A stretch of 64,000 bases of DNA, taken from the sequence record OR544956; one strand, 5' to 3'. The notes under the pieces were generated by a model. It did no database searches. It was not told the origin of the DNA and was given only the letters and a program-made list of their open reading frames with translations. Below, piece after piece: positions 5,665 to 61,151 of this stretch. The DNA comes from Escherichia phage vB_EcoM_EP57. Position 1 is the stretch's first letter, and every line of letters begins with the position of its first letter. The position numbers were made by a program, and so were the translations under genes.

Positions 5665-5949
5665 TTAGCGGTTTACGTGGGCTTTACCGTTTACGGTCAT
5701 CGGTATGGCCTCAAGGTCTGGATCTTCCTTAAGGTCGCGTGAAAGCTCACCGCAGCGGATACCCTCGAATCCGTAGTACTCTGTTGTGCCGTCCTGGAAA
5801 GTTTTAGCGGCAAGGCATAGGCGATAATTAACACCGATCCGGTTTACCGCGTTGATATCGGTTAACGTGATGGATTTAGGCAACTCCTTAGCCATTACAG
5901 GCGCGTTAATACCAACAACCAGGGCAACTACTGCGATCATCTTTTTCAT
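5665..5949 (-). CDS. secreted hypothetical protein (94 aa)
   Basis: N-terminal signal peptide MKKMIAVVALVVGINAPVMA. Confidence 0.55.
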   Translation of the reverse strand: MKKMIAVVALVVGINAPVMAKELPKSITLTDINAVNRIGVNYRLCLAAKTFQDGTTEYYGFEGIRCGELSRDLKEDPDLEAIPMTVNGKAHVNR

Positions 5950-31767: not shown

Positions 31768-32686
31768 ATGCAACTTGGTTTCCCAATTATTGATGTAGTT
31801 GTTTTAGTTGGTATTTTAGCATTGTCTATTGGTATTGATTTCTTTGGTCACAAAGAAAATAAAGAAATTTCATTCAAATCCGCAGTTGGTTGGTCGATCT
31901 TTTGGATTGGTGTATCATTAGCTTATTATGGTTTTGTATACTTCCAACATGGTGCCGATTTTGCTAACTTGTTTTTAAGTGGATATGTGTTGGAAAAATC
32001 TTTGTCGGTAGATAACTTGGTAGTATTTGTAGCAGTATTCGCAAGTTTTGGTATTAAAAGCACACACTTGCAGCACAATAGGCACTTACTTGTTAAGTTT
32101 GGGCTGGTATGTTAATATCTTCTTCGGTGCGGTCATCCTTTTCTGTGCAGCTAAAATGGTATTTGCTGGAGATAATGACGCAGAAGTTGATTACTCTAAA
32201 CACTGGGCTACCCGTATTGTTCGTAAACTGTTCCCTGTATCTAATAAAATGGATGGGGAGAAGTTCTTCACAATCGAAAATGGTGTTCGTGTAGCAACTC
32301 CAGCTTTGGTTTGCGTATTCGTGATGGAAATGGTGGATGTAATCTTTGCAGTAGATTCGGTTCCAGCGGTGATCGCAGTGACACAAGAACCCCTGCTTGT
32401 ATTCTCTTCGATGTTATGTGCAATCTTAGGTCTACGTGCTCTGTTCTTTGTTCTTAGTGTCGCACTGAAGTATCTGGTTCACTTGGAGAAAGCAGTTATT
32501 GTGGTTCTGGTGTTTGTAGGCGTTAAACTGATGTATCACCCGTTTGCAGAAACATTGCATGAGAAAATGAGTTTCCTGCCAGCACATATTGATCCAACTA
32601 TTAGTATGTATATCGTGCTTGGTACTTTGGCCCTTGGTGTTATTGCAAGCTTTATCTTCCCTGAAAAAGAAGAAGCTACTGTTTAA
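31768..32686 (+). CDS. terC: TerC-family membrane protein, frameshifted
   Basis: LSVDNLVVF and QH motifs; ORFs 31768..32115 and 32048..32686. Confidence 0.65.
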
Positions 32687-32728: not shown

Positions 32729-33079
32729 ATGAGTAATTTTGATGAAATTCAAGAACTTGTTTGGGATTTATCTGGTGATGTGGATTACATTTCAGATTAT
32801 CTTTCAAAAGTTTACCCTGGGGTAAGCGTTATGATTGTGACCAAAGATCCAATTAATTTGCCTCCTAATGTTGTAGCTTGTTGTGGAAGTGGTTCAGGAG
32901 AAGTAGAGCCTGTATCTCGTTGGGAATTAACTAAAGCTGTTTCAAAACGAAACGGTGAAGTTTTGAATATTGATATTGAGCAAATATGGACTTCTCCAGC
33001 AGCCAAATGGAATGATCCAAATGGTTGGGATTTGTTCTTCTGGGATAATGAGACTGATGATGAGGTGTTTTTAAAATGA
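32729..33079 (+). CDS. hypothetical protein (116 aa)
   Basis: ORF. Confidence 0.55.
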   Translation: MSNFDEIQELVWDLSGDVDYISDYLSKVYPGVSVMIVTKDPINLPPNVVACCGSGSGEVEPVSRWELTKAVSKRNGEVLNIDIEQIWTSPAAKWNDPNGWDLFFWDNETDDEVFLK

Positions 33080-33321
33080 AATACTTGTTGGTTGTGTTTG
33101 AAAATATCTGTTTTGCAATAGGGTTGTTTGTTGTAATTTTTGTATTGACAAGCGTAATCAACGGCAGTAAAGTGAGTTTATACCGAGATGGAGAGCAACT
33201 TTATTGCTTCTCTGGAGATTTCAAACACAGATGTATTAATAGCCAAAACGAGGAAAGCAAATATGAAAAAACTAGCCCTGATTTTAATTGGTTGTATCTT
33301 TTTAACAGCTTGCGAGGATGA
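33076..33321 (+). CDS. small membrane protein (81 aa)
   Basis: N-terminal TM helix; overlaps next start. Confidence 0.4.
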   Translation: MKYLLVVFENICFAIGLFVVIFVLTSVINGSKVSLYRDGEQLYCFSGDFKHRCINSQNEESKYEKTSPDFNWLYLFNSLRG

Positions 33322-33700
33322 AACAAATCCTGCACAATACCAACAACCTCCTCAACAATACGCTCAACAAGGATCTGACGGAGATACAACTATTATCAAC
33401 AATGGTGGCGGTTCTAGTAGTAGCGGTGTTGGTGAGTTTGCTACAGGTATGTTGTTAGGGCATATGATGAGTGGCGGTAGTAATCGTAGCAGTGGGGATT
33501 ATAACGATAACAGAACGATTATTAATAAGCATTATAATACACCTAAACCGAAAACTAATTTTTATGGTAAGCCTAAACAAGAGATAAAAACTTATGAAAA
33601 GCCGAGACAAACTTTTAAAACAAATAGTAGCTATACAACTCGTAAATCTTACAATAGCCCTTTAAGTAAAAAGAGTTCATCTCGTAGCAAGCGACGTTAA
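33263..33700 (+). CDS. lipoprotein (145 aa)
   Basis: signal peptide and lipobox LTAC; Gly/Ser-rich. Confidence 0.6.
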   Translation: MKKLALILIGCIFLTACEDETNPAQYQQPPQQYAQQGSDGDTTIINNGGGSSSSGVGEFATGMLLGHMMSGGSNRSSGDYNDNRTIINKHYNTPKPKTNFYGKPKQEIKTYEKPRQTFKTNSSYTTRKSYNSPLSKKSSSRSKRR

Positions 33701-36378: not shown

Positions 36379-36546
36379 TTGACTCGACAGGAACTGATCA
36401 CAATCATTGAAGATGCTTTTATTGATGGCTGGAATACACAAGATAATGACTGGGGTGGACCCGAAGCTTTTCTGGAACATCATAAAACTTATGGAGACTC
36501 TTGTGAAACCACTGTAGCTCTTGATAATCTGAAGGAGGGTTTGTAA
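36379..36546 (+). CDS. small hypothetical protein (55 aa)
   Basis: hand-found ORF, TTG start. Confidence 0.3.
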   Translation: MTRQELITIIEDAFIDGWNTQDNDWGGPEAFLEHHKTYGDSCETTVALDNLKEGL

Positions 36547-37109
36547 TGGGTTGTTTTAGCTTTTTGTGCAAAGAATCGGGCAAAGCTGCCCTTTCTACTT
36601 CTTTCGACGGATCACCTTGCTACCTCTTTCTTTTGAAGGACGGTGTTGTTATTGAAGAGATGTATGGCAACTATGATAGTTATGGTTGTGTTTTCTCTGG
36701 AAAGGAGGATGAAAACGGCGTTCGTGAACGATTTGAATGGGCTATGGATTGGGGTAAGGTTTGTGATTTGATGCATTCCTCAAATCCAAGGGACGGTATC
36801 GCTATGGTGCTGGAAGAGTACTTTACAGGTGAAATCCCTACAGAACAATCTGACGGAGATCCTAACCAAGGTTGGGGTGATGGTGAAGAAGATCCAGATT
36901 GTTTTTTCAGCACAGAAAAGAATAAGTTTAAACGTGTTGACAACCCTTATCACAAAGTGCATAATACTCTCATTGAAACAGAAGATGACAAGATGGAAAT
37001 TGAAGAAGATGATCCTCTTGTAACACTTCCTGTAAGTGAGTTACAAAAGATCACTAAGGAAGCTTACGATTTGGGCTTCAAAATTGGTAGAGGAGGTATG
37101 CGTGTTTAG
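36546..37109 (+). CDS. acidic hypothetical protein (187 aa)
   Basis: ORF. Confidence 0.55.
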   Translation: MGCFSFLCKESGKAALSTSFDGSPCYLFLLKDGVVIEEMYGNYDSYGCVFSGKEDENGVRERFEWAMDWGKVCDLMHSSNPRDGIAMVLEEYFTGEIPTEQSDGDPNQGWGDGEEDPDCFFSTEKNKFKRVDNPYHKVHNTLIETEDDKMEIEEDDPLVTLPVSELQKITKEAYDLGFKIGRGGMRV

Positions 37110-37380
37110 ATTCAATATTCAAGAAGAAAAAAGTCAGGATTTACCTATTGCTTTCGAAGATCTTGACGTAGGGGCCACATTCATGTATTATGATGCCTAT
37201 GAAGACGCAGGGTTGGATACCTACCGTAACTTGGTGTTCATTAAAAATTCCACAAACAGTGCGATCTGTATTAATGGATCACTAGCACAACGAGGCTATA
37301 CTCATTGCATCCCACCAGATACAAATATGGTGGAAGTAGATTTAGAAGTTACCAATATTACACTTAAGAAGGAGAAATAA
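37102..37380 (+). CDS. small protein, paralog family member A (92 aa)
   Basis: GTG after GAGGAGG; paralog of 38402..38671. Confidence 0.5.
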   Translation: MFRFNIQEEKSQDLPIAFEDLDVGATFMYYDAYEDAGLDTYRNLVFIKNSTNSAICINGSLAQRGYTHCIPPDTNMVEVDLEVTNITLKKEK

Positions 37381-37381
37381 T

Positions 37382-38176
37382 ATGTCCGAGAAAATCAGCC
37401 TGAAAAAACGTCAAGAAAACCTTGCTTTCTCTCTGAAAAAGAATAAGAACCTGAATGAAGGTAAGATTGTTCTTCGTGTAGCATGTGCTCTAGATATTTC
37501 TGGTAGTATGCATGGTCTATATTCTAGTGGGGTAGTGAGTGATTTTGTAGGTAAACTGCTTCCTTTTGGTATGCTGTTCGACGATAATCAACAAATTGAT
37601 ATGTGGGCCTTCAATACGAGTTCCCAAGAGCTTACTCCAGCAACAGCAGATGTTTACGATGACTATGTTGGTAAATGTATGCGTAATGTTCGTATCGGAG
37701 GTGGAACAAATTACGCCCCTGTAATGGCGGATATCTACGATGAGTATTTTGGCACTGTTACTAAATATATTACCACTAAACAAGTGGTACAAGAGGAGGC
37801 TCCAAAGAAAGGTTTCTTTAATCGTCTACTTGGTAAAACTGAAACAGTATCTGTAGAGCGTGAAAAGGTCGTAGCTGTATCTGAACCAGGTGCTGACGTT
37901 ACCCCTGGTGTTGTATTCTTCCAGACAGACGGTGAGAATGGTGATCCTAGTGCTGTTCGTCGTCTTATCGAAGAGAATAAGAATAAACCTATTTATTGGT
38001 TCATGGTTGGCGTTGGTAATGAGAAGTTTGGCTTCCTGAAAGAACTGGCAAATGCTTATGATAATGTTGGTTTTATTGGCATTAAAGATTTAGACTTGAC
38101 AGATTCAGAGCTTTATGACAAACTCTTATCTGAAGAGTTCGGAGAGTGGGTTGTTAAAGTAGGTGCTAAAAAATGA
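37382..38176 (+). CDS. vWA-domain protein, TerY-like
   Basis: MIDAS motif DISGSM; TerD-like N-terminus ISLKK. Confidence 0.65.
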   Translation: MSEKISLKKRQENLAFSLKKNKNLNEGKIVLRVACALDISGSMHGLYSSGVVSDFVGKLLPFGMLFDDNQQIDMWAFNTSSQELTPATADVYDDYVGKCMRNVRIGGGTNYAPVMADIYDEYFGTVTKYITTKQVVQEEAPKKGFFNRLLGKTETVSVEREKVVAVSEPGADVTPGVVFFQTDGENGDPSAVRRLIEENKNKPIYWFMVGVGNEKFGFLKELANAYDNVGFIGIKDLDLTDSELYDKLLSEEFGEWVVKVGAKK

Positions 38177-38421
38177 TCGACGAGCTTGCCTCTCAAGTCA
38201 TAGAAAATTATTGGCGCGAGAGAGAAGCTTTCATTATGCGCAGTCTCAAAGAGTATTTCATTGGGACTGTGCGAATGGAAGATATTGTAAGTAGAGTAGA
38301 GATTCATGTATGGCCCGATTATGAAGAATGGGTTGACAAAGAAAATGAAAATGCTATAATTCTTCGTATATACAAACCGGAGATAACATTAGGAGGAAGA
38401 AGTGTTAAACTTCGAAATTGA
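38173..38421 (+). CDS. hypothetical protein (82 aa)
   Basis: ORF. Confidence 0.5.
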   Translation: MIDELASQVIENYWREREAFIMRSLKEYFIGTVRMEDIVSRVEIHVWPDYEEWVDKENENAIILRIYKPEITLGGRSVKLRN

Positions 38422-38671
38422 TGAGCAAAAAGTAAATAAACGATGCCTTACCATTAAAGATTTGGATGTAGGAGATACTTTCGTCTATGAAAATGCATTT
38501 GACGAAAATGGTTTAGACCTTAGTGAAATCATTGTTTATTTAAAAGTAGATGATGGGGAAAATGATTATTCTGCTGTAGAACTAAACCATCATGCACAAT
38601 TAGTATCAATCCAAAACACATCTAAGCTTTTGGAAGTAGAATTGACTGTAACTGGTATTACACTTAAATAA
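38402..38671 (+). CDS. small protein, paralog family member B (89 aa)
   Basis: GTG after AGGAGGAAG; shares DLDVG.TF.Y..A.D..GLD and EV.L.VT.ITLK. Confidence 0.5.
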   Translation: MLNFEIDEQKVNKRCLTIKDLDVGDTFVYENAFDENGLDLSEIIVYLKVDDGENDYSAVELNHHAQLVSIQNTSKLLEVELTVTGITLK

Positions 38672-38686
38672 TAGAGGAGACAAAAG

Positions 38687-39289
38687 ATGACTGATAAAAT
38701 TTCCCTGAAAAAAGGCTCTAGCGAAAAAATTTCCCTGAAGAAAGTTGCTCCGGCTCTGAAAGAACTACGCCTGGAATTCTCTTGGAAATCTGATTCTAAA
38801 CTAGATCTGGATGTAAGTGCACTGGTTTGTCGTCACAATGCCGCTGGCAATCCTGAAATGCTGTCTGCACGTCATCTGGTTTGCTATGCTAACAAGTTTG
38901 ATCCTGAACGTTCTACCTTCGCTGGTGACGATGTTCGTGATGGAACTGGCAGCATGGAGCAGATTGATATTACTCTGGCTAAAATCTCTCCTGATGCACA
39001 AGAGATTGCCTTTGTTCTGACCATTGATGATGATACAGGTCTGAAACGTTTTGGTCATGCTTCTGAAGGTATGCTTAAAATCTTCGACTCCGAGCGCAAT
39101 GTGGAAATTCTGGATTTTGACTTCCTGGCTCCTGAAGTAGCTGGCAACACAATCTGCCACGTGGCTTCCTTGGTTCGTGAAGATGGGGAATGGAAGCTGA
39201 AAGCATATGGTGTAGGTAAAGCTGGTCTGGATATTTGTGATGTGGTGATGGCCTTCGGTGGTAAAAAAGAATGGTATGAATGTCCGTAA
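38687..39289 (+). CDS. terD: TerD-family stress protein
   Basis: ISLKKG repeats, LDLDVSAL, GDDVRDGTG, GEWKLKAYGVG; highly optimised codons. Confidence 0.8.
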   Translation: MTDKISLKKGSSEKISLKKVAPALKELRLEFSWKSDSKLDLDVSALVCRHNAAGNPEMLSARHLVCYANKFDPERSTFAGDDVRDGTGSMEQIDITLAKISPDAQEIAFVLTIDDDTGLKRFGHASEGMLKIFDSERNVEILDFDFLAPEVAGNTICHVASLVREDGEWKLKAYGVGKAGLDICDVVMAFGGKKEWYECP

Positions 39290-39307
39290 TAATTAACAAA
39301 TGATTTT

Positions 39308-39330
39308 GAGGGGGAGAAATCCCCCTCTTG
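39308..39330 (+). terminator. hairpin, possible weak terminator
   Basis: GAGGGGG-AGAAAT-CCCCCTC, short U-tract. Confidence 0.35.
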
Positions 39331-39356
39331 CAATAAAGCCTCTATCGTGTTATACT
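39328..39356 (+). promoter_or_regulatory. sigma70-type promoter
   Basis: TTGCAA-N17-TATACT upstream of 39389. Confidence 0.5.
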
Positions 39357-39388
39357 AGAAATTCGTTAACTTAAAAAGGAGGCAAAAT

Positions 39389-39910
39389 TTGCTGATAAAA
39401 AACTTTGTAACAGTTGCGTTACTATCCTTAACTGCTTTTACATTTACACCTGTTGTGGCGAAAGCCGAAGCTGCAAACGTAAAAACCGCTAAAGTAGTTC
39501 ACAAATGTACAAAGCAATATAATGATAAAATTCTATTAGCTTGTGCAATTTACGCAGAAGGTCGCGGTCTGGGTAAAAAAGGAATGAATGCCGTTGGGAA
39601 TGTGGTAATCAACAGAAGAAATGATACCTACTTCCCTAACACAGTCAGAGGAGTCTTGTTCCAGAAAGGGCAATTCTCATATGCGAAAACTTTTAACGTA
39701 ACAGAGAAAGATAAGTGGCAGGAAGCAAAAGCAATAGCGGAGCGTTTACTTTATTTAGAGAAACATTTTCCTGAATTGCGGTCTGTTTTAGATGTTACTA
39801 AAGGTGCTCTATACTTCAAGAAACGGAATATAAGAACACACTGGGAACGTGATATGCGTCTTGTTTATCGAGATAAAGTGCATGGTTTCTATCTACCAAA
39901 GGGGAGTTAA
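39389..39910 (+). CDS. secreted SleB/CwlJ-like cell-wall hydrolase
   Basis: signal peptide; AIYAEGRG..VGNVVINR. Confidence 0.6.
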   Translation: MLIKNFVTVALLSLTAFTFTPVVAKAEAANVKTAKVVHKCTKQYNDKILLACAIYAEGRGLGKKGMNAVGNVVINRRNDTYFPNTVRGVLFQKGQFSYAKTFNVTEKDKWQEAKAIAERLLYLEKHFPELRSVLDVTKGALYFKKRNIRTHWERDMRLVYRDKVHGFYLPKGS

Positions 39911-39911
39911 A

Positions 39912-40196
39912 ATGCAAGAAGATAATACTGTTGTTGTAGCAAGTTACCTGGTTGTCGGTCTTACTGAAGAGGATGTATACTACACCCGTAAGCATTTAGA
40001 AGCATACGCTACTTTGTTTATGGAAGATGAAAAGGATGTAGATAAATATAGCATTGACATGATCAACGACAGTATTTATCCTTGTATGGTTCTTAAAGTA
40101 GATGCTGTGTTGTGGGAGCGTTTTGCAAGGACTCATGATGCTGTAGAATGCTCCGCAGTAATGTCTCAAAACAACATTTTAGGGGAGATTCACTGA
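39912..40196 (+). CDS. hypothetical protein (94 aa)
   Basis: ORF trimmed to ATG. Confidence 0.5.
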   Translation: MQEDNTVVVASYLVVGLTEEDVYYTRKHLEAYATLFMEDEKDVDKYSIDMINDSIYPCMVLKVDAVLWERFARTHDAVECSAVMSQNNILGEIH

Positions 40197-40420
40197 TGGG
40201 AGAAGTCATTGAAGTCAATTTTCGCACTAAACAGAAAGTGCAAAAATATGTCGTTATTAAAAACATTTGCGTTGTCTGCTTCAATACAGTAATATACGAC
40301 TCACGACGCGGAGAAAACGAACCTTACATTGAAATTTCTAAGAACAAAGGTCAATGTATTTGTAAGAACTGTGCAGTAGCTATTAAGGAGGTTGTAAATG
40401 AAAACGCTTGGGACCAATGA
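40196..40420 (+). CDS. Cys-rich small protein (74 aa)
   Basis: C..C ... C..C spacing. Confidence 0.5.
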   Translation: MGEVIEVNFRTKQKVQKYVVIKNICVVCFNTVIYDSRRGENEPYIEISKNKGQCICKNCAVAIKEVVNENAWDQ

Positions 40421-40589
40421 AACTGGCGAGATCTCTCTTCAAGAAGTGACAAACGACAAACTGATTAAACTACGGGACGTAGCCCGTGACCATCTCCAAG
40501 AATCTTTTAAAGAATATATGGAAGCACGAGATCGTGTGATCCAAATCCAACAAGAAATGATTAAACGTGGGATTGTAGCCGACAGTTAA
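40398..40589 (+). CDS. hypothetical protein (63 aa)
   Basis: ORF with AAGGAGG RBS. Confidence 0.5.
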   Translation: MKTLGTNETGEISLQEVTNDKLIKLRDVARDHLQESFKEYMEARDRVIQIQQEMIKRGIVADS

Positions 40590-40605
40590 TATAACGGAGG
40601 GGAGA

Positions 40606-41169
40606 ATGATTTATTATATTACTCCCTATCTGACAGGAAATATCGGCAAGGCTATCAATGAAGCCATTGCCGTTCTTCCAGATGATAGTTGGGTGTGTTT
40701 AAGAGATACCGATACAATGTTCCTCCTACCTGATCAACCATCTATGCTTGAAGAGCTTGTTATGTCAAACCCGCCTTTTGATGTAATAGGTGCAACTTGT
40801 AACAGGTTAGGCAGTGGTTATCAGCTTTTCTCTAACCAAATTAACGATGATCCAGATATTCTAAACCATATAGAATATGCTAAGATTGCAAGAGAATATC
40901 ATAAAGTAAATGTTGAAGAAGTTCCTTTCGGAACACCTCTGGCAGGTTTCTTTTTGCTTTTTAGAAAATCATTGTGGAATGAAATTCCTTTTGAAGAAAA
41001 ATCTATCCAATTCGACTTAATTTTCTCTCGCACTTTACATGAAAAAGGAAAGAGGTTAGGATTGATGCGGGGAATGTATCTGTTTCACATTTACAGATTA
41101 GGTCAAACAAATCCTCAACGGTCTATACATCATTTATTACACTGTCATGATCACAGTAAAACTATTTAG
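40606..41169 (+). CDS. putative GT-A-like glycosyltransferase
   Basis: DTD (DxD) after N-terminal beta-alpha-beta. Confidence 0.4.
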   Translation: MIYYITPYLTGNIGKAINEAIAVLPDDSWVCLRDTDTMFLLPDQPSMLEELVMSNPPFDVIGATCNRLGSGYQLFSNQINDDPDILNHIEYAKIAREYHKVNVEEVPFGTPLAGFFLLFRKSLWNEIPFEEKSIQFDLIFSRTLHEKGKRLGLMRGMYLFHIYRLGQTNPQRSIHHLLHCHDHSKTI

Positions 41170-41177
41170 GAGAGAAA

Positions 41178-41861
41178 ATGGAAAATATTAAAATCGGAGT
41201 GGGTGTTATCACTGTAGGTGTCCGTCCGCTTAAAGACTACCTTGTAACAGATCCACGTGCAGATTTTCGAGTATTCAACGATCCAGATCGTAAAGGTGTA
41301 GCTTATGCCAGGAATGAACTTATGCACCAGTTTTATGAAGAAGGTTATGATTATTGGTTTATTTTTGACGACGATTGCTACCCAGTCATGGAGGGATGGG
41401 AAACATATTTTGTAGATCAAGCTGTCTCTGGAGGATGGGATTTCTTTGGTATGCCGGAGTACTTCAAAGATAAAGTTGTTGGAAGCAAAGGAGAAGTTAT
41501 TCTCTGGGAACTTGCAATGTGTCAATTTGCAATGTATTCTCGTGCCGTTGTTGAGAAGATGGGTTATTTCCGTCCTTACACTCACGGTTATGGTTTTGAA
41601 GATGCTGAATGGGGACACCGTTTGCAAGCTGCTGGTTTGAATCATGGTATTCAGGCAACACCTTGTCCACTTCGTATCATGGCTTATATCCACCCAGACG
41701 ATGTTTTTGGAAACAATCCTATGCCTTTTGCTAATCTGACAAAAGAAGAGAAAGAAGCTGCTATTGGGATTAACTGGGAAGAATATAAAGCATCTTTAGA
41801 GGATATTAAAAATGGGAAAATCCGAATTTCCTATGAGGAGGCACTAGCACATGTCAAATAA
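41178..41861 (+). CDS. GT-A (family 2-like) glycosyltransferase
   Basis: FDDDCYP DxD and GFEDAEWG. Confidence 0.55.
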   Translation: MENIKIGVGVITVGVRPLKDYLVTDPRADFRVFNDPDRKGVAYARNELMHQFYEEGYDYWFIFDDDCYPVMEGWETYFVDQAVSGGWDFFGMPEYFKDKVVGSKGEVILWELAMCQFAMYSRAVVEKMGYFRPYTHGYGFEDAEWGHRLQAAGLNHGIQATPCPLRIMAYIHPDDVFGNNPMPFANLTKEEKEAAIGINWEEYKASLEDIKNGKIRISYEEALAHVK

Positions 41862-42798
41862 AAAATGGTCTAAACTAAAAATTGATGCAAAACCTCACAG
41901 CGGTTGTGACTATCATCGTATTGTTATGCCATTTAACAACAATAATATTCAACCTAAGAAAGATGCTGTTGTGTTTAACCGTATCCACTCTAAAGGTGCA
42001 GAATACGTTTTATCTTTGAAACGTCAAGGTGTTAAGATTGTTGTAGATTTAGATGATTTCTACCAACTTAATCCAGAACATTATTTAGCAAGTCTATACG
42101 AGTCAAACACTCATGCTATTGTAGCTATGGTTAAGCTTGCGGATGTGGTTATTGTGACTACGGAATATTTGGCATATAAGATCCGTCACTTAAATAGGAA
42201 TGTTGTTGTGATCCGAAATGCACTTCCTTTTGATAGTGGACAATTCACTTTGTCAAATGATCGTTCATCCGGTACCCCTGTTGTATGGGCTGGCGGTGCT
42301 AGTCACGAACCAGACTTACGACTAGTCTCTAATACTTTCGATGATGAACTTCTTACTATTGCGGGATATGAAACATCACAAAGCATCACGGGACAAGAGT
42401 GGATTAAGATTCGCAGAAATTTACCAAATGCTAAATATAAAGCCGCTGTAAAAGATTTAGATAATTACATGAGTGTTTACGAAAGTCATGCTATTGCTAT
42501 AGCTCCTTTGGTAGATAACGATTTTAATAATTGTAAAAGTAATCTCAAAATCCTGGAAGCTGGAGCAAAAGGTATTCCAATTGTTTGTTCTAAGGTATTA
42601 CCTTATTTTAACCCTGTAGATGCTCGCGCTGTTGCTTACGCAGAGAATAAAGCAGAATGGCATTACGAAATTGTTAAGCTTCTTCGCAATCCAAACTATC
42701 GGGAAGATCGTGGCTTGTTCTTGGCTGAACATGTTCGAACACATTATAATCTGGCAGATGCAAACGAGTTGCGACGCCAGGTTATTGAAAGTTTGTAG
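41851..42798 (+). CDS. GT-B-fold glycosyltransferase
   Basis: KSNLKILEAGAKGIPIV donor-binding motif. Confidence 0.6.
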   Translation: MSNKKWSKLKIDAKPHSGCDYHRIVMPFNNNNIQPKKDAVVFNRIHSKGAEYVLSLKRQGVKIVVDLDDFYQLNPEHYLASLYESNTHAIVAMVKLADVVIVTTEYLAYKIRHLNRNVVVIRNALPFDSGQFTLSNDRSSGTPVVWAGGASHEPDLRLVSNTFDDELLTIAGYETSQSITGQEWIKIRRNLPNAKYKAAVKDLDNYMSVYESHAIAIAPLVDNDFNNCKSNLKILEAGAKGIPIVCSKVLPYFNPVDARAVAYAENKAEWHYEIVKLLRNPNYREDRGLFLAEHVRTHYNLADANELRRQVIESL

Positions 42799-42805
42799 GT
42801 GAAGT

Positions 42806-43750
42806 ATGGGACAAATAATTCTTGACAATCGTAACGGAATCAATTATAGTGTCTGCGATTTCCATAGGGTAGTGCTGCCTTACTCAAGGCAGTTCTCTTC
42901 ACAACCTAAACACAACGTTTTCGTTTTTAACGGGGTGCCAACAAAAGGTAAAGAGGGCTTTTTAGCCCTTAAAAACCTAGGCTTTAAAATGGTTATGGAT
43001 TTGGATGACTCTTTAGTTATTCCAAAAGGACACATGTTAGAAGGTATTTTTGAATCAGGTATTCGTGAACATTTAAAATGGTTTTTAGAGCACAGCGATC
43101 TTGTTACAACTACGACACCTGCTTTGCAAGTTGAACTTTCACAATACAATGATAATGTGCACATAATCCCTAATGGACTTCCTTACGATGAAGGTCAATT
43201 TGTGTTGACCCGTGATCGCTACTCCAAAACTCCATTAGTCTGGGCTGGAAGTGAAACACATAAACAAGATTTGGCTATCTTGCCCGATTTTGGTAAAGAT
43301 CTTACAATATGTGGTTTTCGTAGGGATTCTGAAGTTTTAAGTAGTCGTGAATGGTCTGTGATCAGAGAAAATGTAGCACCAACTTGTGTTTATGAAGGTG
43401 TAAGACCATATGCCAACTACATGGAATCTTACGATGGTCATCAAATCAGTCTTGCGCCATTGATTGATAACGTGTTTAATAATGCAAAAAGCAATCTTAA
43501 AATTCTTGAGGCAGGTGCTAAGGGTTTACCTTTGATTTGTTCTCCTCGTGAGAATTATCATACACAAGAGTTTAAAGATTTGTTATTCTTTGCTGAAACA
43601 CCTTCCGAGTGGAAAGATATTACGGAATACTTATTAAGTGCTCCCGATGTTTGCATGGAGAAAGGATTAGCATTAGCTAAGTATGTCAGGACTCATTATC
43701 ACATTGATGTGTTGAATGAGCGTCGTAGACTTTTATTTGAGGAGCTATAA
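42806..43750 (+). CDS. GT-B-fold glycosyltransferase, tandem paralog
   Basis: KSNLKILEAGAKGLPLI; colinear with previous gene. Confidence 0.6.
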   Translation: MGQIILDNRNGINYSVCDFHRVVLPYSRQFSSQPKHNVFVFNGVPTKGKEGFLALKNLGFKMVMDLDDSLVIPKGHMLEGIFESGIREHLKWFLEHSDLVTTTTPALQVELSQYNDNVHIIPNGLPYDEGQFVLTRDRYSKTPLVWAGSETHKQDLAILPDFGKDLTICGFRRDSEVLSSREWSVIRENVAPTCVYEGVRPYANYMESYDGHQISLAPLIDNVFNNAKSNLKILEAGAKGLPLICSPRENYHTQEFKDLLFFAETPSEWKDITEYLLSAPDVCMEKGLALAKYVRTHYHIDVLNERRRLLFEEL

Positions 43751-44028
43751 TGATTAACACTTTTGATTTTGAATACACCACTCGTAACGGGAAAGCTTTA
43801 GTCGTGGAGGTGGATTACTATTATGAAGAGCCTAACCCGCTTTCTCGTGAAAGTGATTGGGATTACCACGGAGGGCTTTTAATCGACGGTATTCGTTTTT
43901 ATGAAGGCTCTACAGAAGTTTTTGAAAAAGATTTAAATGTAACTGTAGCAGAAATTGCTTTCCAATTTAGAAAGCACATGGAAGAACTAGAAGCAGAATA
44001 TATGATGGAGACTAACGAACCATTTTAA
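43750..44028 (+). CDS. hypothetical protein (92 aa)
   Basis: ORF. Confidence 0.5.
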   Translation: MINTFDFEYTTRNGKALVVEVDYYYEEPNPLSRESDWDYHGGLLIDGIRFYEGSTEVFEKDLNVTVAEIAFQFRKHMEELEAEYMMETNEPF

Positions 44029-44040
44029 CAGGAGAACAAA

Positions 44041-45812
44041 GTGTCGCACATTATAACTAAATATGGATTTGATGTTGATCTTAGCAAGGAAGGGCATACA
44101 GGTTGTCCGCGCTGCATGAAAAATGGCAAGGATCGCTCTCGTAATAACCTGATGGTTTATGGATTAGATTCTAATGGAGAGCATAAAGGTGCTAAGTGCT
44201 TTGCGTGTGAATACACTATTCCTAGCGTAGAATGGTTACGAGAAAATGGTGAAGTTTTAGAAGAAGAGGAGGAGATTGTGGGTTCGGAATTTAATAAACA
44301 GATTCATCGTAAAATTGTTCAAGAAACATCAACCAACCCACGTGGTTATCGAGGCATTAAAGAAAAAGTTTCATCTTTCTATGGCGTTCGTTATGAATAC
44401 CGTCAGGAAGGGGATCAGATGGTAGTAGAAAGTTGTTTATATCCGACTACCATCGGTAAAGAGTTGGTTGGTTTTAAGCGTCGTATTCATCCTAAAGATT
44501 TCAGTAAACCTATTGGTCAAGTAGGTAAAGATGTAGATCTTTTTGGACAAATTCGTTTTGCAGACCGTTCTCATACTGTGGTAATTACAGGTGGTGAACA
44601 CGATGCTCTGGCAGCTTATCAAATGCTGTCTGAAAACTTGGACAACAAATATGAACTTCCAGCAGTAGTTAGTGGCACAACTGGTGAAACCAGTATGTAT
44701 AAACAAGTTCAGGCACAATATCCTTTCTTTGAAAAATTTAAGAAGATTATTGTTTGCATGGATAATGACAAAGCAGGTAATGAGGCATTTGAAAATATTG
44801 TTAAGGTGCTGCCTCGTAACAAAGTCTACCGTATGCAGATGGATCTAAAGGATGCCAATCAGTATCTGGAAGAAGGCCGTGCAAAAGATTTCGTAAAAGC
44901 TTTTTGGAGTGCTCGTCTATACACCCCAGCAGGTGTTTATGCTTCTAATGTCTTGTATGAAGCTGCATTAGAATGCTTGGAATCCAAGATGATTACCTTG
45001 CCTCCTTTTATGCGTGTTGCTGCAAACATGCTGGGTGGTGGTTTAGTAGAGGAAGAGATTACCGTCATCCTGGCAAAGACCAGTATCGGTAAAACTTTGA
45101 TGGTGAACGAGATCACCAAACATATTATTGTTGCGCACCCAGAACATACCCTAGGTATTCTGTCCTTGGAAGCAACTTATAAGAAATATTCTCGTAACCT
45201 GTTGTCCTCGTTCCTGCATATTCCTCTACACAGGAAAACACCGGAAGAGAAATTTCAAATCTTGGAAGAGAATAAAGAAAAAATCCTAGATTTTTACGAA
45301 AGAGAAGATGGATCACCACGTTTTTATGTGTGTGATGATCGTGGAGCAGATGTGGAGTCTATCAAAGAAAAAGTTTTGGAGATGATCATCTATTTTGGAG
45401 TAACAATTCTTGTTATCGACCCTTATTCTGATTTGCTTTCTGGTATGGATGTTCAAGCCCAGGAAGAGTTAGCAACATGGTTGAAGCGCATCATGAAAGA
45501 GTATGCTATAACCATTATCCACACGTTAAGAAGTCGGCTAATGGTGGCAATGAACACTTAACAGAGGACGATGCAATGGGTAGTAGTTTCTTGGCTAAAG
45601 GTGCTGGTATTACCTTGGCTTTGGAACGAGATAAAGCCGCTGAAGACCCTGTAGAACGCAATACGACTCATTGCTTTATCCTAAAAAACCGTGAGTTCTC
45701 GGAAACTGGTCCGGCAGGGCAGTTTTACTATGACATTAGAACTGCAACTCTGCATGACAAAGAGCAGTATTTCAACAATCCTGCTAATTTGCCTACGGAT
45801 AGCAACTATTAA
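44041..45812 (+). CDS. T7 gp4-like primase-helicase, frameshifted
   Basis: Zn ribbon, TOPRIM, Walker A/B, C-terminal HVKK..GG..ALER in next frame; ORFs 44041..45561 and 45477..45812. Confidence 0.75.
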
Positions 45813-45832
45813 GGGCTTCGGCCCTTTTATTA
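45813..45832 (+). terminator. rho-independent terminator
   Basis: GGGCTTCGGCCC plus TTTTATT. Confidence 0.65.
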
Positions 45833-45842
45833 AAAATACCTG

Positions 45843-45871
45843 TTGACAACTTTACGGAAGAGATTTATACT
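45843..45871 (+). promoter_or_regulatory. sigma70-type promoter
   Basis: TTGACA-N17-TATACT then AAGAGGAG RBS. Confidence 0.6.
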
Positions 45872-45904
45872 TGTCTCATCAACCAAACAAGAGGAGAAGT
45901 AAAA

Positions 45905-46336
45905 ATGCGTATGACAATCGATCTGAATGCAAAAGTTAAAGCTGCTGGTGCTCTGGGTGCTGGTGTTATTAAACACAAACAAGCGTTGGCATTTGCCATC
46001 CCACATATGATTGTTGAGGATCATCCTGAAGAGTTTGCTGTAAAAGTTGTTGAGAACAATGTCTCTGTTATTGAACATCTTCCAACTGGACGTTCTTACC
46101 GTGTTGTTTCTTCTAAAGGTTTTCGTTTCGATGTAAGCCCTTCTTTCACAAAAGGTGCTGGTCGTAGTAAAGTGGGTATTCTTTCTTACAAATATTATAT
46201 CGATAAAGTTGCAGATGGTGTCGCATTCTGTCGTGTAAGTGAAGGTAAAGTAGATATCATCTTTAAAAATACCAAAAACATGGTTATTTCTGACGATGGT
46301 AAAGTTGACCTCACTATTGAGTTCGCTAACAACTAA
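45905..46336 (+). CDS. hypothetical protein (143 aa)
   Basis: ORF. Confidence 0.6.
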   Translation: MRMTIDLNAKVKAAGALGAGVIKHKQALAFAIPHMIVEDHPEEFAVKVVENNVSVIEHLPTGRSYRVVSSKGFRFDVSPSFTKGAGRSKVGILSYKYYIDKVADGVAFCRVSEGKVDIIFKNTKNMVISDDGKVDLTIEFANN

Positions 46337-46345
46337 GGAGGACTA

Positions 46346-47140
46346 TTGAGCAAGTTGAATACACTTGATCAATATTACACTAACCCCGCTTATGCGGGGT
46401 TCTTATGTGATAAGATCAAAGAAATTTTTGGAGAGGAAGCTAACTACGTAGAACCATCTGCGGGAGAAGGAGCTTTCTCTTTTTGTTTTAAAAACATAAC
46501 TTCTTTTGATATTGATCCTAAGTTTGAAGATTGTATTGAGGCAGATTTTTTAGCTCAATCTGTTGAGTCTGTTGGTAGTGTAACTGCTTTTGTCGGTAAT
46601 CCTCCGTTTGGAAAAAATGCCAGTCTTGCCATTAAGTTCTTTAACCATTGTGCTGAAATGTTGGATAACGAAGGTGGTATTTGTTTTATCTTGCCTCGCA
46701 CATTTCAAAAAATCTTTTTTGCACACAAACTAAATCCCCACATGCATCTTCTTTACGAAGAAGAATGTCCAAAAGGATCTTTTATTCTTCATGGAGAACC
46801 TTGGGATGTTCCTTGTGTATTCCAGATATGGATTAAACGCAACGAGAAGCGTTCTCCCGTTGTTTTAGGAGAAAATCGACTGTTCGTATTAGGTAACAGT
46901 AAAGACTACGACATAGCCGTTAGGAGAGCGGGAGCAAGTGCAGGTAAAGTGTTATCAGAAGAAGATTCTTTATCTGAAGCATCTACCTACTTTTTAAAAG
47001 CCTTGACTTCTGATCTTAAAACACGTATCATTGAGGCTTACCCGTTACTTAAAGCTGAAGCTAGTAAAACTGCGGGAGTAAGAAGTTTAAGTTTAAAAGA
47101 ACTTCAGTGGGTTCTGGAGAACATTAGAAAGGAGGAATAG
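46346..47140 (+). CDS. DNA N6-adenine methyltransferase
   Basis: SAM motif EPSAGEGAF and catalytic GNPPFG. Confidence 0.65.
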   Translation: MSKLNTLDQYYTNPAYAGFLCDKIKEIFGEEANYVEPSAGEGAFSFCFKNITSFDIDPKFEDCIEADFLAQSVESVGSVTAFVGNPPFGKNASLAIKFFNHCAEMLDNEGGICFILPRTFQKIFFAHKLNPHMHLLYEEECPKGSFILHGEPWDVPCVFQIWIKRNEKRSPVVLGENRLFVLGNSKDYDIAVRRAGASAGKVLSEEDSLSEASTYFLKALTSDLKTRIIEAYPLLKAEASKTAGVRSLSLKELQWVLENIRKEE

Positions 47141-49737: not shown

Positions 49738-49755
49738 TTAACATATTGTTTTATA

Positions 49756-49775
49756 AGGGGCTTCTGCCCCTTTAT
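49756..49775 (+). terminator. rho-independent terminator
   Basis: AAGGGGC-TTCT-GCCCCTT plus TAT. Confidence 0.55.
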
Positions 49776-49785
49776 AGGAGGAAAT

Positions 49786-49977
49786 ATGCATTACGATTTA
49801 GATTGTCTTGGTATGCCTTACCTACCAGATGAATTTGAAGGCGAAGAAGAACGTGAATGGGACGATGGGGATATCCGTTGTTGGTCTTGTGGTAAAGATA
49901 TGTCTTATGAACAACATATGCACAATGATGGTTTCTGTATACATTGTTATAATGAAATTGATCTGGAGGAAGATTAA
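49786..49977 (+). CDS. Cys/His-rich small protein (63 aa)
   Basis: CWSCG ... CIHCY. Confidence 0.5.
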   Translation: MHYDLDCLGMPYLPDEFEGEEEREWDDGDIRCWSCGKDMSYEQHMHNDGFCIHCYNEIDLEED

Positions 49978-50144
49978 TGGGAAATGGTATCATGATTTGC
50001 TATAAAATTGTGCGTATTGTCGGAGACGAAGTTACCACTCGGTATTTTATGATAGAGTCTCAAGCCGATGAGGTTTACAATGACTGGCTTGAAAAAGGTG
50101 GATACGATTTTGTATCTAAAGAAACTTTCCGTTTAGAAGTATAA
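49977..50144 (+). CDS. small hypothetical protein (55 aa)
   Basis: hand-found ORF after GGAGGAAG. Confidence 0.4.
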   Translation: MGNGIMICYKIVRIVGDEVTTRYFMIESQADEVYNDWLEKGGYDFVSKETFRLEV

Positions 50145-50154
50145 GGAGAAAACA

Positions 50155-50373
50155 ATGCGTAAACTAGTGAGCTTTAATGTTTCAATTCTTATTGATGAAC
50201 AAAATGAAGATGTTATTAAAGGTCTTGCAAATAAGATTGCAGGTGGAATGACGGAAGCTGAAGTGTGGGAAGAATGTGCTCGACTTTATGAGGAAGGTGT
50301 TATTGAGGTCTTGGGAGATGAGATTAATATGGACGATATTGTTAAAGTAACTGTGGAGCGTATCAATGACTAA
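50155..50373 (+). CDS. hypothetical protein (72 aa)
   Basis: ORF with AAGGAG RBS. Confidence 0.55.
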   Translation: MRKLVSFNVSILIDEQNEDVIKGLANKIAGGMTEAEVWEECARLYEEGVIEVLGDEINMDDIVKVTVERIND

Positions 50374-50868
50374 ATCAAAACAAATCAATATTGCCAAAGA
50401 AATTCTTACCGTATTAAAGATCGCTGATCCTAATTCTGTCTTGGCTGGCGGTGCTGTTCGTGATTGGCGTATTCTTGATATTGCTGGACGTGATCTGGAT
50501 TTTTACACATCTCTTCCTGCACATCGGAAGGTGTTACTGGTCTTAAACACGTTTTTGAGTTTGAACGTGATGGTCAGCTTTGCAACCTTATGATTATGGA
50601 ACCAAGCGTAATGACAACCTTTCTAAATGAGTTTGATCTGTCCATCTGTCAAGCTGCATTTGATGGGAAGGATTGTTATTATTCTAAAGATTTTGAAACA
50701 ACCTTGGAAACAGGGATCTGCTTCTTGCACAAAGATGTTAGAGAAGATGCCAAACACGTTATTAAAATTGCTACACGTTTCCCATATCTTCGTTTTGTGA
50801 AAGAGGTTAAGGTTCCACGTCCACCTCAAGTAGATACCAGATTGGAAGAAGATGATATTCCTTGGTAA
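50366..50868 (+). CDS. Pol-beta-superfamily nucleotidyltransferase, frameshifted
   Basis: GGAVRD and DLD motifs; C-terminal part continues in another frame. Confidence 0.45.
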
Positions 50869-60969: not shown

Positions 60970-61151
60970 TAGTCATCCTCTTTGGTAGATTGTGATCTGC
61001 CCCAACGTAAATCAATAAGATTTTTCATGAGGCGAGAAGGGGTTATCATGAAAACAAAAGCCCAACCCATCCATTCAGGAATTTCTTTTTCTATTCCTAA
61101 AAAGATAAACATGCCTGTCATAACAGACATGCCTACAGCGTTCCAGACCAT
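60969..61151 (-). CDS. small membrane protein (60 aa)
   Basis: two TM segments. Confidence 0.45.
   Translation of the reverse strand: MVWNAVGMSVMTGMFIFLGIEKEIPEWMGWAFVFMITPSRLMKNLIDLRWGRSQSTKEDD

Follow-up and report, generated by a model that had tools for sequence, protein, structure and literature searches.

A putatively secreted SleB-family wall hydrolase in Escherichia phage vB_EcoM_EP57: main endolysin or accessory enzyme?

Phages of Gram-negative bacteria can carry SleB/CwlJ-like wall hydrolases, and one was predicted in Escherichia phage vB_EcoM_EP57 (sequence record OR544956), of which a stretch of 64,000 nucleotides, the window to which all positions refer, was analysed here. The original prediction described a hydrolase with a signal peptide, a dedicated promoter and no recognisable holin or spanin close by, and left two roles for it, a signal-peptide endolysin or a function unrelated to lysis. 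How would such an enzyme reach the wall? Is it the endolysin of the phage, or is lysis carried out by other genes? And if it is not the endolysin, what could it be doing in the envelope?

The gene, its fold and its catalytic motif

The open reading frame occupies exactly 39389-39910 on the + strand, runs from a TTG start to a TAA stop, encodes 173 residues and is a real gene. Its product and gp109 of Escherichia phage tuntematon share 100% identity; in phAPEC8 the protein corresponds to phAPEC8_00199, a "putative cell wall hydrolase SleB". The gene is already annotated in phapecoctaviruses as putative cell wall hydrolase SleB or as endolysin. Is the start codon the right one? The TTG, kept in relatives, is the first start codon after an in-frame stop and lies six bases downstream of an optimal Shine-Dalgarno sequence, AGGAGG (39377..39382, + strand). 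Both elements are invariant in the alignment of relatives, and the next in-frame start, a GTG at V23, has no ribosome-binding site. The conserved TTG should keep protein levels low. These observations bear on one alternative, namely that the start codon is wrong or that the N-terminal stretch is not a functional export signal, which would make the protein a cytoplasmic, holin-dependent endolysin. A TTG start is indeed unusual, but the invariant start and Shine-Dalgarno sequence, the GTG lacking a ribosome-binding site and the covarying cysteines described below, which argue for an oxidising compartment, make this alternative highly improbable.

The protein matches Pfam PF07486 (Hydrolase_2) with an E-value of 1.9e-17 and 64.1 bits (cut-off 27) over profile positions 3-100 of 100. 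This is its sole Pfam domain; the match spans residues 62-168 and the folded domain approximately residues 36-173. The two motifs on which the SleB-type catalytic region had been proposed, AIYAEGRG and VGNVVINR, are both present, at residues 53-60 and 69-76, so that this part of the original prediction holds together with the Hydrolase_2 match. The protein also matches PHROG 938, which is labelled endolysin, and a profile built from close relatives matches the SleB catalytic domains 4F55 and 4FET (E about 1e-9).

An AlphaFold2 model built from a 117-sequence alignment reached a pLDDT of 87 (an earlier model on 15 close relatives reached 55 and was discarded) and adopts the SleB catalytic-domain fold. 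A Foldseek search of this model against the PDB returned only 4F55 and 4FET (E about 1e-5), with target-normalised TM scores of 0.72-0.74, an rmsd of about 3 Å and 26-27% identity. Six residues, E57, N75, R76, Q95, W152 and H165, are invariant in the 117-homologue alignment. Glu57 (codon GAA, 39557..39559, + strand) belongs to a Y-x-E-x-R-G motif in which the glutamate is found in 117 of the 117 homologues, Y55 in 114 and R59 in 115. It aligns with the glutamate of the YGESRGE motif in 4F55 and 4FET, which we take, following the 2012 SleB structure papers, to be the catalytic residue of SleB. The phage protein may thus be pictured as small and basic, with the SleB/CwlJ (Hydrolase_2) fold, and as cleaving the glycan strands of peptidoglycan; by analogy with SleB it would be a lytic transglycosylase with Glu57 as the predicted catalytic acid. 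What would its substrate be? SleB needs muramic-δ-lactam, and E. coli peptidoglycan does not contain it, so activity of the phage protein on ordinary peptidoglycan is an assumption. A literature search turned up no paper in which a Hydrolase_2 protein from a phage of Gram-negative bacteria had been assayed for enzymatic activity.

A predicted Sec signal and two exclusive cysteine pairs

The protein begins with the hydrophobic stretch MLIKNFVTVALLSLTAFTFTPVVAKA, followed by EAANVK, in which the 11-residue Kyte-Doolittle mean rises to 2.18 and an A-x-A site closes the segment, in agreement with the signal peptide of the original prediction. Residues 1-26 (39389..39466, + strand) form a predicted Sec signal peptide with a lysine in the n-region (K4), an h-region from F6 to V23, a helix breaker at -6 (P21) and small residues at -3 and -1 (A24-K25-A26, then E27). 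The segment thus follows the sequence rules for a cleavable Sec signal, and it is by these rules, rather than by a trained predictor, that the cleavage site was placed. The predicted mature periplasmic enzyme would comprise residues 27-173 (39467..39907, + strand), with a mass of 17.0 kDa and a pI of 9.9. Among 15 relatives the c-region of the signal varies, yet the small residues at -3 and -1 are kept. The wider family behaves similarly: a hydrophobic N-terminus is present in 131 of 150 family representatives, and typical signal peptides begin the homologues of rV5-like naam, T5 (T5.083), Seunavirus KE23 and Erwinia phage Papaline. The CB7 paper attributes a signal peptide to the homologue of that phage and describes it as toxic when expressed in E. 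coli (data not shown there). The enzyme would accordingly cross the inner membrane by its own cleavable Sec signal, with no need of any holin, and be cut near Ala26.

Is the signal really removed? Among close relatives the n- and h-regions are 82% conserved, compared with 66-72% for the catalytic domain. A signal peptide that is discarded would not usually be so well kept, and a membrane-tethered form could be the reason. Such a form would be expected of a SAR (signal-anchor-release) endolysin, in which an uncleaved hydrophobic segment tethers the inactive enzyme until the membrane depolarises. Besides being more conserved than the remaining protein, the segment is long (F6-V23) and rich in Thr, Ala and Ser (8 of 19 residues), as this reading would have it. 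It has no glycine, however, and the A-x-A site and the Pro at -6 persist although the c-region around them varies, as one expects of a signal that is cleaved; more distant homologues carry short, ordinary signal peptides, and no pinholin is adjacent. A SAR endolysin is therefore very unlikely.

A second feature of the protein points to the periplasm. Cys40 (39506-39508) and Cys52 (39542-39544; pair 39506..39544, + strand) covary and are predicted to form a periplasmic disulfide. Among the 117 homologues a pair at positions 40 and 52 occurs in 40 and a pair at positions 49 and 87 in 76. The pairs exclude each other: a single homologue carries both and a single one neither. Two exclusive, covarying pairs (116 of the 117 homologues) fit an oxidising compartment and, as far as sequence can tell, support export. 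The Cys40-Cys52 bond would stabilise the enzyme in the periplasm.

Transcription unit, other lysis genes and the role of the enzyme

Immediately after the TerD-family gene lies a GC-rich hairpin, GAGGGGG-AGAAAT-CCCCCTC (39308..39327, + strand; -17.2 kcal/mol, z -2.79), which abuts the -35 hexamer of the next promoter and has a weak U-tract. The annotation of phage ASO2A calls it a rho-independent terminator, and it may serve as one or as an element at an RNA 3' end; its G5/C5 stem is invariant across three genera/species and so shows no covariation. The sigma-70-like promoter (39328..39356, + strand) combines a -35 TTGCAA (39328-39333), a 17-nt spacer and an extended -10, TGTTATACT (39348-39356). 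In the consensus scan TTGCAA-17-TATACT scores 9/12 plus the TG extension, which is a consensus match only. The -35 is invariant, the -10 is TATACT or TACAAT in relatives at 69-75% protein identity, and hairpin, promoter and AGGAGG are all conserved in Justusliebigvirus EC_OE_11 and phiWec179. A search for repeats of the motif TTGCAA-N14-TGTTAYAMT (≤2 mismatches) gave only two occurrences, no more than chance, so the promoter cannot be assigned to a promoter class. Host RNA polymerase would probably transcribe the gene from this conserved sigma-70-type site.

Is this promoter dedicated to the hydrolase, as had been proposed? It does lie directly upstream, but it is not private, since it heads a multigene unit of about 6.4 kb that ends with a primase/helicase. 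The next gene starts with an ATG at 39912, one base past the hydrolase stop codon, and opens a run of co-oriented, tightly packed genes (39912..45812, + strand) that, judging by gene order and the lack of a strong terminator between them, probably share the transcript. The run comprises three small ORFs with no Pfam match and no hydrophobic segment (39912-40196, 40196-40420 and 40398-40589), four predicted glycosyltransferases (40606-43750), a 92-residue ORF and the primase/helicase (44041-45812), which is frameshifted in this genome. After the hydrolase gene no terminator-like site is found on the + strand until about 45811-45831, except a weak one at 44921. The end of the unit (45811..45871, + strand) is marked by a hairpin, AAGGGC-UUCG-GCCCUU, followed by a T-run (45811-45831, read by eye) and by the next promoter, TTGACA-17-TATACT (45843-45871, 11/12 in the scan). 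As the unit is common to the glycosyltransferases and the primase/helicase, transcription of the hydrolase probably begins before the late phase. The conserved sigma-70-like promoter and a distant homologue that is not late-biased, gp151 of PAK_P3 (see below), speak for the same timing.

Where, then, are the genes for lysis? The claim that no holin or spanin is nearby is borne out: there is none, and no membrane protein gene of any kind, within about 5 kb of the hydrolase gene. From about 33.7 kb to 60.9 kb no ORF matching an annotated gene has a TM segment apart from the signal peptide itself, and no hidden small two-TMD ORF overlapping the gene, in the style of Certrevirus, was found. A T4-type lysozyme and spanins are absent from the 64 kb window, and in relatives these genes are located beyond it. 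The near-identical tuntematon encodes a T4 e-like soluble lysozyme (PF00959) and an overlapping i-spanin/o-spanin pair adjoining the terminase (PHROGs 4297 and 1267; lipobox MMTGC). Public phapecoctavirus records at ≥95% identity number 64 with the SleB-like protein, 64 with the lysozyme and 64 with the i-spanin, and we infer the lysozyme and spanins of this particular genome from relatives about 99% identical to it. The original prediction had named, as what would speak against it, a canonical lysis cassette elsewhere in the genome together with a lack of muralytic activity in this protein; of the two, tuntematon and the 64-record counts bring the cassette.

With a T4 e-type lysozyme and spanins in the relatives, the protein is unlikely to be 'the endolysin', and a second, accessory enzyme is the more likely role. 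The gene departs from a canonical endolysin in its signal-like N-terminus, its covarying cysteine pairs and the absence of a holin or spanin neighbour, and it departs from the sole secreted endolysin of a lysis cassette in that relatives have the T4 e-type lysozyme and there is no cassette here. The product of 39389-39910 is thus probably an accessory, holin-independent, periplasmic wall-cleaving enzyme and not the principal endolysin, a reading held with moderate confidence. The principal endolysin would most likely be the T4 e-type soluble lysozyme, working with a putative holin and Rz/Rz1-type spanins encoded elsewhere in the genome. Being already at the wall, the SleB-like enzyme may weaken or remodel the sacculus during infection; alternatively, it may be restrained until the membrane depolarises and then aid lysis, as secreted endolysins such as Lys44 do. 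One canonical endolysin together with a distant SleB-like gene has also been seen or reported in T5, T5-like Salmonella phages, Certrevirus, Septuagintavirus, PVP-SE1-like/BME3 and LNA4; in T5, the lys gene T5.040 and the holin gene T5.041 stand together, far from the SleB-like T5.083.

Could the protein nevertheless be a true secreted endolysin, exported early, inactive under an energised membrane and acting once a holin collapses the proton-motive force, either redundant or co-essential with the T4-type lysozyme? Judging by its homologues, the family can provide a genuine lysis enzyme. In Erwinia phage Papaline (Loessnervirus Y2 species) a protein of this architecture follows the holin directly in the lysis cassette, in Certrevirus the homologue is overlapped by a candidate class II holin, and a part in lysis has been ascribed to the homologue of CR3. 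The endolysin label of PHROG 938 agrees with this, and a class of endolysins restrained by membrane potential is already established (Lys44 of phage fOg44). In the CRISPRi-ART screen of T5 the holin scored 'Fit' and lys (T5.040) 'Not Fit', which would fit redundancy of lys with T5.083. Knock-down of T5.083 was itself without fitness effect ('Not Fit'), a point against the secreted endolysin that says little because the screen missed known essential genes: lys and several virion genes score alike, so the result does not show that T5.083 is dispensable. No PHROG 938 entry for SUSP1 was found in that dataset. What weighs more heavily against a secreted endolysin is the lack of a holin or spanin within about 5 kb, the complete alternative set of T4 e-type lysozyme and spanins conserved in relatives, and the position of the gene in a replication/accessory unit instead of a late one. 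It is a possible reading, though a doubtful one.

What if lysis is not involved at all? The gene lies among TerD, vWA-TerF, TerC and the four glycosyltransferases, envelope- or host-directed neighbours that suggest that the enzyme might turn over peptidoglycan in the periplasm, either as an auxiliary metabolic function or to remodel the envelope. It might, for instance, release muropeptides or precursors, open up space in the sacculus, or modify the envelope along with the glycosyltransferases and Ter-like proteins. The PAK_P3 authors proposed such a role for the homologue gp151, as an explanation of the accumulation of cell-wall precursors, and gp151 is expressed from early infection. Its fraction of the phage transcripts is the same at 3.5 min as at 13 min (log2FC 0.62, not significant), while the structural genes rise by 4-13 log2 units. 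Conservation of the homologue beside rIIA/rIIB in Vequintavirinae points the same way; here, a tblastn search of the window and of the first 106 kb of tuntematon gave no rIIA/rIIB homologue. The support is circumstantial, however: no partner or regulator was found, neighbouring proteins have no Pfam match, and lysis cassettes, too, can contain members of the family. A role unrelated to lysis can therefore be entertained, but only tentatively, beside the preferred accessory enzyme.

Wider meaning and comparison with known systems

For this window the result is mainly a correct annotation: the proper name for the gene would be that of an accessory, secreted cell wall hydrolase of the SleB family, and not 'the endolysin'. 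Gene and puzzle alike have already been described in earlier publications. An extra secreted wall enzyme beside a normal endolysin occurs in many large virulent coliphages, therapy candidates included. Should this enzyme attack Gram-negative peptidoglycan from the periplasm with no need of a holin, this would bear on lysis timing and on the choice of enzybiotics, and it could also account for odd knock-downs such as that of T5 lys, dispensable in the CRISPRi screen. Should lysis not be its function, it would be a case of a phage directing the remodelling of the wall in the course of infection. A bolder proposal, which we regard as speculative and rather unlikely, would place Sec-secreted, disulfide-bonded lytic transglycosylases of the SleB type in one conserved class, the 'second wall enzymes', shared by five or more unrelated lineages of large virulent phages that infect Gram-negative bacteria. 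The enzymes would be expressed early or in the middle of infection and have a job distinct from end-of-cycle lysis, which the canonical endolysin, holin and spanins would carry out. The lineages named are Stephanstirmvirinae, Vequintavirinae, T5-like Demerecviridae, Nankokuvirus/Pakpunavirus and some jumbo phages. The job might be, for instance, to control the turnover of peptidoglycan, to remodel the envelope or to bring about exclusion.

How does the protein compare with its relatives? With Bacillus SleB (4F55, 4FET) it shares the fold and the Y-x-E-x-R-G motif with its invariant Glu, but it has neither the N-terminal peptidoglycan-binding domain nor a YpeB partner gene, it scores 51.7 bits against the SleB equivalog TIGR02869 (NCBIfam), below the cut-off of 236.5, and the host of the phage has no spore cortex or muramic-δ-lactam. 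The closest system is its own group: phAPEC8_00199 and tuntematon gp109, the 'second lytic protein' of phapecoctaviruses (iGC_PHA_EC001, BME3), are identical or nearly so. The phapecoctavirus papers already describe two lytic proteins per phage, PF00959 and PF07486, and no adjacent holin; to these the present analysis contributes the covariation of the cysteines, the layout of the operon and the comparison across families.

The SleB-like proteins of Vequintavirinae (CB7_83, CR3_087, rV5-like naam_76, Seunavirus KE23) are 33-39% identical over nearly the full length, have a signal peptide and the same Cys40/Cys52 pair, and are likewise extra to another peptidoglycan hydrolase. In Vequintavirus and Seunavirus, the gene lies directly upstream of rIIA/rIIB, and in Certrevirus it overlaps a two-TMD holin candidate; both arrangements are absent here. 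T5.083 of T5 and T5-like phages and gp151 of PAK_P3 (Nankokuvirus) are also secreted single-domain Hydrolase_2 proteins encoded in an early/DNA-metabolism region, far from the holin-endolysin pair. Their identity to the present protein is lower in extent (about 33-37%, catalytic domain only), they use the Cys(49,87) pair, and expression of gp151 is neither early- nor late-biased. The Papaline endolysin (Loessnervirus Y2 species, Chaseviridae) has a signal peptide, MREFFLLILLLMAVPASA, followed by G and then by Hydrolase_2, as here, but its gene belongs to a lysis cassette and follows a multi-TMD holin directly, whereas no holin is near the gene of vB_EcoM_EP57.

Lys44 (Oenococcus phage fOg44) and the SAR endolysins (P1 Lyz, R21) are muralytic enzymes that reach the wall through Sec and with no need of a holin, as proposed here. 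These enzymes have catalytic folds different from Hydrolase_2, each is the sole endolysin of its phage and is encoded beside a holin or pinholin, and the SAR domains are uncleaved.

The SleB-like protein: fold and export

The window matches the phapecoctaviruses (Stephanstirmvirinae, phAPEC8-like E. coli myoviruses), and over 38000-41500 it shares 99.6-99.7% identity with phages TSP7_1 and tuntematon. The open reading frame at 39389-39910 (+) and the motifs originally quoted from its translation proved right. Its counterparts are tuntematon gp109 (100% identical protein) and phAPEC8_00199, variously labelled 'putative cell wall hydrolase SleB', 'endolysin' or 'spore cortex-lytic enzyme'. Is the catalytic region truly of the SleB type? 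The protein matches Pfam Hydrolase_2 (PF07486, E 1.9e-17) and PHROG 938, and a profile of 15 close relatives (59-89% identity), run against all PDB sequences, had no matches other than the catalytic domains of SleB, 4F55 and 4FET. With a 117-sequence alignment as input, AlphaFold2 gave a confident model (pLDDT 87; residues 36-173 mostly >90) whose only significant PDB neighbours are the same two structures, with a target-normalised TM of 0.72-0.74, an rmsd of about 3 A and 26-27% identity. The Pfam match, the profile matches and the model thus bear out the predicted SleB-type region. E57, N75, R76, Q95, W152 and H165 are invariant in the 117 homologues, and E57 aligns with the Glu of the YGESRGE motif in 4F55 and 4FET, which we take, after the 2012 SleB structure papers, to be the SleB catalytic residue. 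A Hydrolase_2 fold with an intact active site is almost certain. Orthology to SleB itself is ruled out: the score against the SleB equivalog model is 51.7 bits (cut-off 236.5), and the protein has no peptidoglycan-binding domain.

How would such an enzyme reach the wall? Residues 1-26 (MLIKNFVTVALLSLTAFTFTPVVAKA) combine an n-region Lys, a hydrophobic core of 18 residues, a proline at -6 and alanines at -3 and -1; by rule, the predicted cleavage site falls after A26, possibly A24 or A28. The c-region is much like that of the E. coli PhoA signal (…LFTPVTKA before R). Among the 15 relatives it is the least conserved part of the protein (52% pairwise identity), with small residues kept at -3 and -1. 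The n- and h-regions (residues 1-21, 39389-39451) reach 82% against 66-72% for the catalytic domain, which is unusual for a cleaved signal. Homologues from other phage groups begin with unrelated yet typical signal peptides: those of the rV5-like phage naam (MKIKIFAIILSALLSLPVVA before APK), T5.083 (MKAALLLVAALTFSFSSQA before SHD), Seunavirus KE23 and Erwinia phage Papaline (MREFFLLILLLMAVPASA before G). An exhaustive profile search for the family gave 17,203 cluster representatives with E no higher than 1e-3, and a hydrophobic N-terminus is found in 131 of the best 150 of these. The strongest independent argument for export is the covariation of cysteines in the 117-sequence alignment: Cys 40 and Cys 52 occur together in 40 sequences and Cys 49 and Cys 87 in 76; one sequence has both pairs, one has neither, and none has half a pair. 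Paired, swappable cysteines are the pattern that would be expected for a disulfide in an oxidising compartment. Together with the n/h/c features and the homologue N-termini, this covariation sustains, as a prediction, the signal peptide originally placed before the SleB domain, and the protein is very probably exported. Elsewhere in the window, predicted exported proteins are a 94-aa protein at 5665-5949 (-), with the signal peptide MKKMIAVVALVVGINAPVMA before KE, and one at 33188-33700 (+), with a lipoprotein-like signal from an internal Met, MKKLALILIGCIFLTAC.

Transcription unit and genomic setting

Upstream of the SleB-like gene lies a TerD-family gene (38687-39289, E 3.2e-28), followed by a GC hairpin at 39308-39327 (-17.2 kcal/mol, z -2.8) without a good U-run, labelled a terminator in the phage ASO2A record. 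A candidate promoter matching the consensus (TTGCAA-17-TATACT, TG before the -10) occupies 39328-39356, and AGGAGG stands at 39377-39382 ahead of the TTG start. The hairpin, promoter, AGGAGG and TTG are all kept in Justusliebigvirus EC_OE_11 and phiWec179, whose proteins are 69-75% identical. The original prediction assigned this promoter to the SleB-like gene alone, a reading that is not borne out, as the gene heads a multigene unit of ~6.4 kb. The next frame starts at 39912, 1 base past the stop, and opens a gapless run of three small ORFs (with no Pfam match in their proteins), four predicted glycosyltransferases, a 92-aa ORF and the primase/helicase; the first clear plus-strand hairpin-plus-T-run downstream is at 45811-45831, with a TTGACA-17-TATACT promoter directly after it. 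Sharing a unit with a replication gene would count against strictly late expression. The sole homologue found with transcript data, the distant PAK_P3 gp151, takes the same share of phage reads at 3.5 and 13 min (log2FC 0.62, padj 0.34), and PAK_P3 structural genes rise by 4-13 log2 units over that interval.

The four consecutive glycosyltransferase genes of the presumed unit (40606-43750, +), together with a dTDP-rhamnose pathway elsewhere in the genomes of relatives, suggest phage-directed modification of envelope or glycan. Just upstream of the SleB-like gene, a Ter-like stress gene set spans about 31.4-39.3 kb: TerC, a gene labelled 'tellurite resistance' in tuntematon, a vWA-TerF-like gene (37382-38176, E 1.6e-37) and TerD. 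A perfect sigma-70 consensus (TTGACA-16-TATAAT, 12/12, TG extension) at 38333-38360 (+), within the small CDS 38173-38421, could act internally as a promoter driving the TerD gene and the small ORFs downstream.

No public phapecoctavirus relative is colinear with the window. Compared with tuntematon 53-77497, about 26 segments are missing from it, each between 27 bp and 2.2 kb long and adding up to roughly 13.4 kb, with junctions at, for example, 2015/2016, 16694/16695, 23409/23410, 26477/26478, 52245/52248, 58585/58586 and 61147/61148. Four junction-spanning queries returned no public record with the junction contiguous; two of these four queries covered large junctions, contiguous in 0 of 64-70 public records. 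The primase/helicase (44041-45812) is frameshifted into two ORFs (44041-45561 and 45477-45812) by a 7-bp deletion at about 45520 (GTCATCT in relatives), found in 0/64 public records (best identity 95.8%, owing to the gap). Compared with all public relatives, the gene for a TerC-family membrane protein (31768-32686) has a 56-bp deletion at about 32078 and is split into overlapping ORFs, 31768-32115 and 32048-32686. The non-colinearity could stem from extensive deletion in the isolate, from faulty assembly, or from editing or synthesis of the sequence. Conclusions on the SleB-like gene are unaffected, because the 14-kb block 36379-50528 is colinear.

Lysis genes and the proposed role

The remark that no holin lies nearby stands: no membrane protein gene was found within about 5 kb on either side of the SleB-like gene. 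The other lysis genes of tuntematon are dispersed. They comprise gp234, a 166-aa T4 e-like lysozyme (PF00959) without a signal peptide, and the overlapping i-spanin and o-spanin genes gp165 (N-terminal TMD, PHROG 4297) and gp164 (lipobox MMTGC, PHROG 1267), which adjoin the terminase; Kongari et al. include phAPEC8, with phi92, among the two-component spanin phages. None of the three lies within the 64-kb window. At 95% identity or more, the SleB-like protein, the lysozyme and the i-spanin are each found in 64 public records, equal counts which place a canonical lysis set elsewhere, going by ~99% identical relatives. The original prediction would have yielded to such a set combined with a lack of muralytic activity; the first half holds on this reasoning from relatives. 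As candidates for the holin, the BME3 paper names two small membrane proteins, one of 61 and one of 81 residues. These are probably, respectively, the 60-aa protein at 60969-61151 (-), with two TMDs and a charged C-terminus (PHROG 1322, 'membrane protein'), and the 81-aa protein at 33076-33321 (+), with an N-terminal TMD (PHROG 17591), the best holin candidates in the window.

The SleB-like protein is likely not the principal endolysin. We lean, with some reserve, towards a basic 17-kDa SleB-fold enzyme (pI 9.9) that would be exported by Sec, cleaved by signal peptidase and stabilised by a disulfide, and would act from the periplasm to cut the glycan strands of the sacculus, reaching its substrate without any holin. 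It would be made at a modest level, given its TTG start, from a host-type promoter common to accessory and replication genes, and would be accessory to the lysis system proper, made up of a T4-type lysozyme, a holin and spanins. Does it weaken or remodel the wall during infection, or is it restrained until the membrane depolarises and only then aids lysis? We hold the two about equally probable. The purpose of a second secreted enzyme is a real but modest biological question, easily settled by experiment.

A second wall enzyme in other phages

Annotation of the gene goes back to the phAPEC8 genome record (JX561091), and earlier publications already mention its signal peptide, the 'two lytic proteins' and the absence of an adjacent holin; what is added here is the covariation of the cysteine pairs, the reading of the genes as an operon and the tally across phage families. 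By tblastn, 1,221 phage records contain a match to the protein. Every group examined has it as a second wall enzyme, far from the known or predicted endolysin. T5 has lys (T5.040) and holin (T5.041), as against T5.083 in the early region, and for T5-like Salmonella phages the authors raise the question of which endolysin is chiefly employed. Certrevirus CB7 pairs an M15 peptidase with the SleB-like CB7_83, LNA4 a class I chitinase (PF00182) domain protein with a PF07486 protein, and Phapecoctavirus iGC_PHA_EC001 its 'two lytic proteins', PF00959 and PF07486; the same holds for Septuagintavirus and, according to the BME3 paper, for PVP-SE1-like phages and BME3. The window and the first 106 kb of tuntematon yielded no rII homologue; in Vequintavirus (naam, locus L006, 3995-7690) and Seunavirus (KE23, locus L013, 3004-6453) the SleB-like gene stands immediately before rIIA-rIIB, with an HNH endonuclease and a small ORF inserted between them in KE23. 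Buttimer et al. reported SleB-like homologues in all Vequintavirinae genera, their own having a signal peptide and being toxic on expression in E. coli (data not shown), and Chevallereau et al. saw in the PAK_P3 homologue a possible auxiliary metabolic gene through which wall precursors are released. There are contrary cases, however: the SleB-like gene of Certrevirus overlaps a candidate holin with two TMDs, and in Erwinia phage Papaline (Loessnervirus Y2 species) a gene with the same architecture of signal peptide and Hydrolase_2 domain lies directly 3' of a holin.
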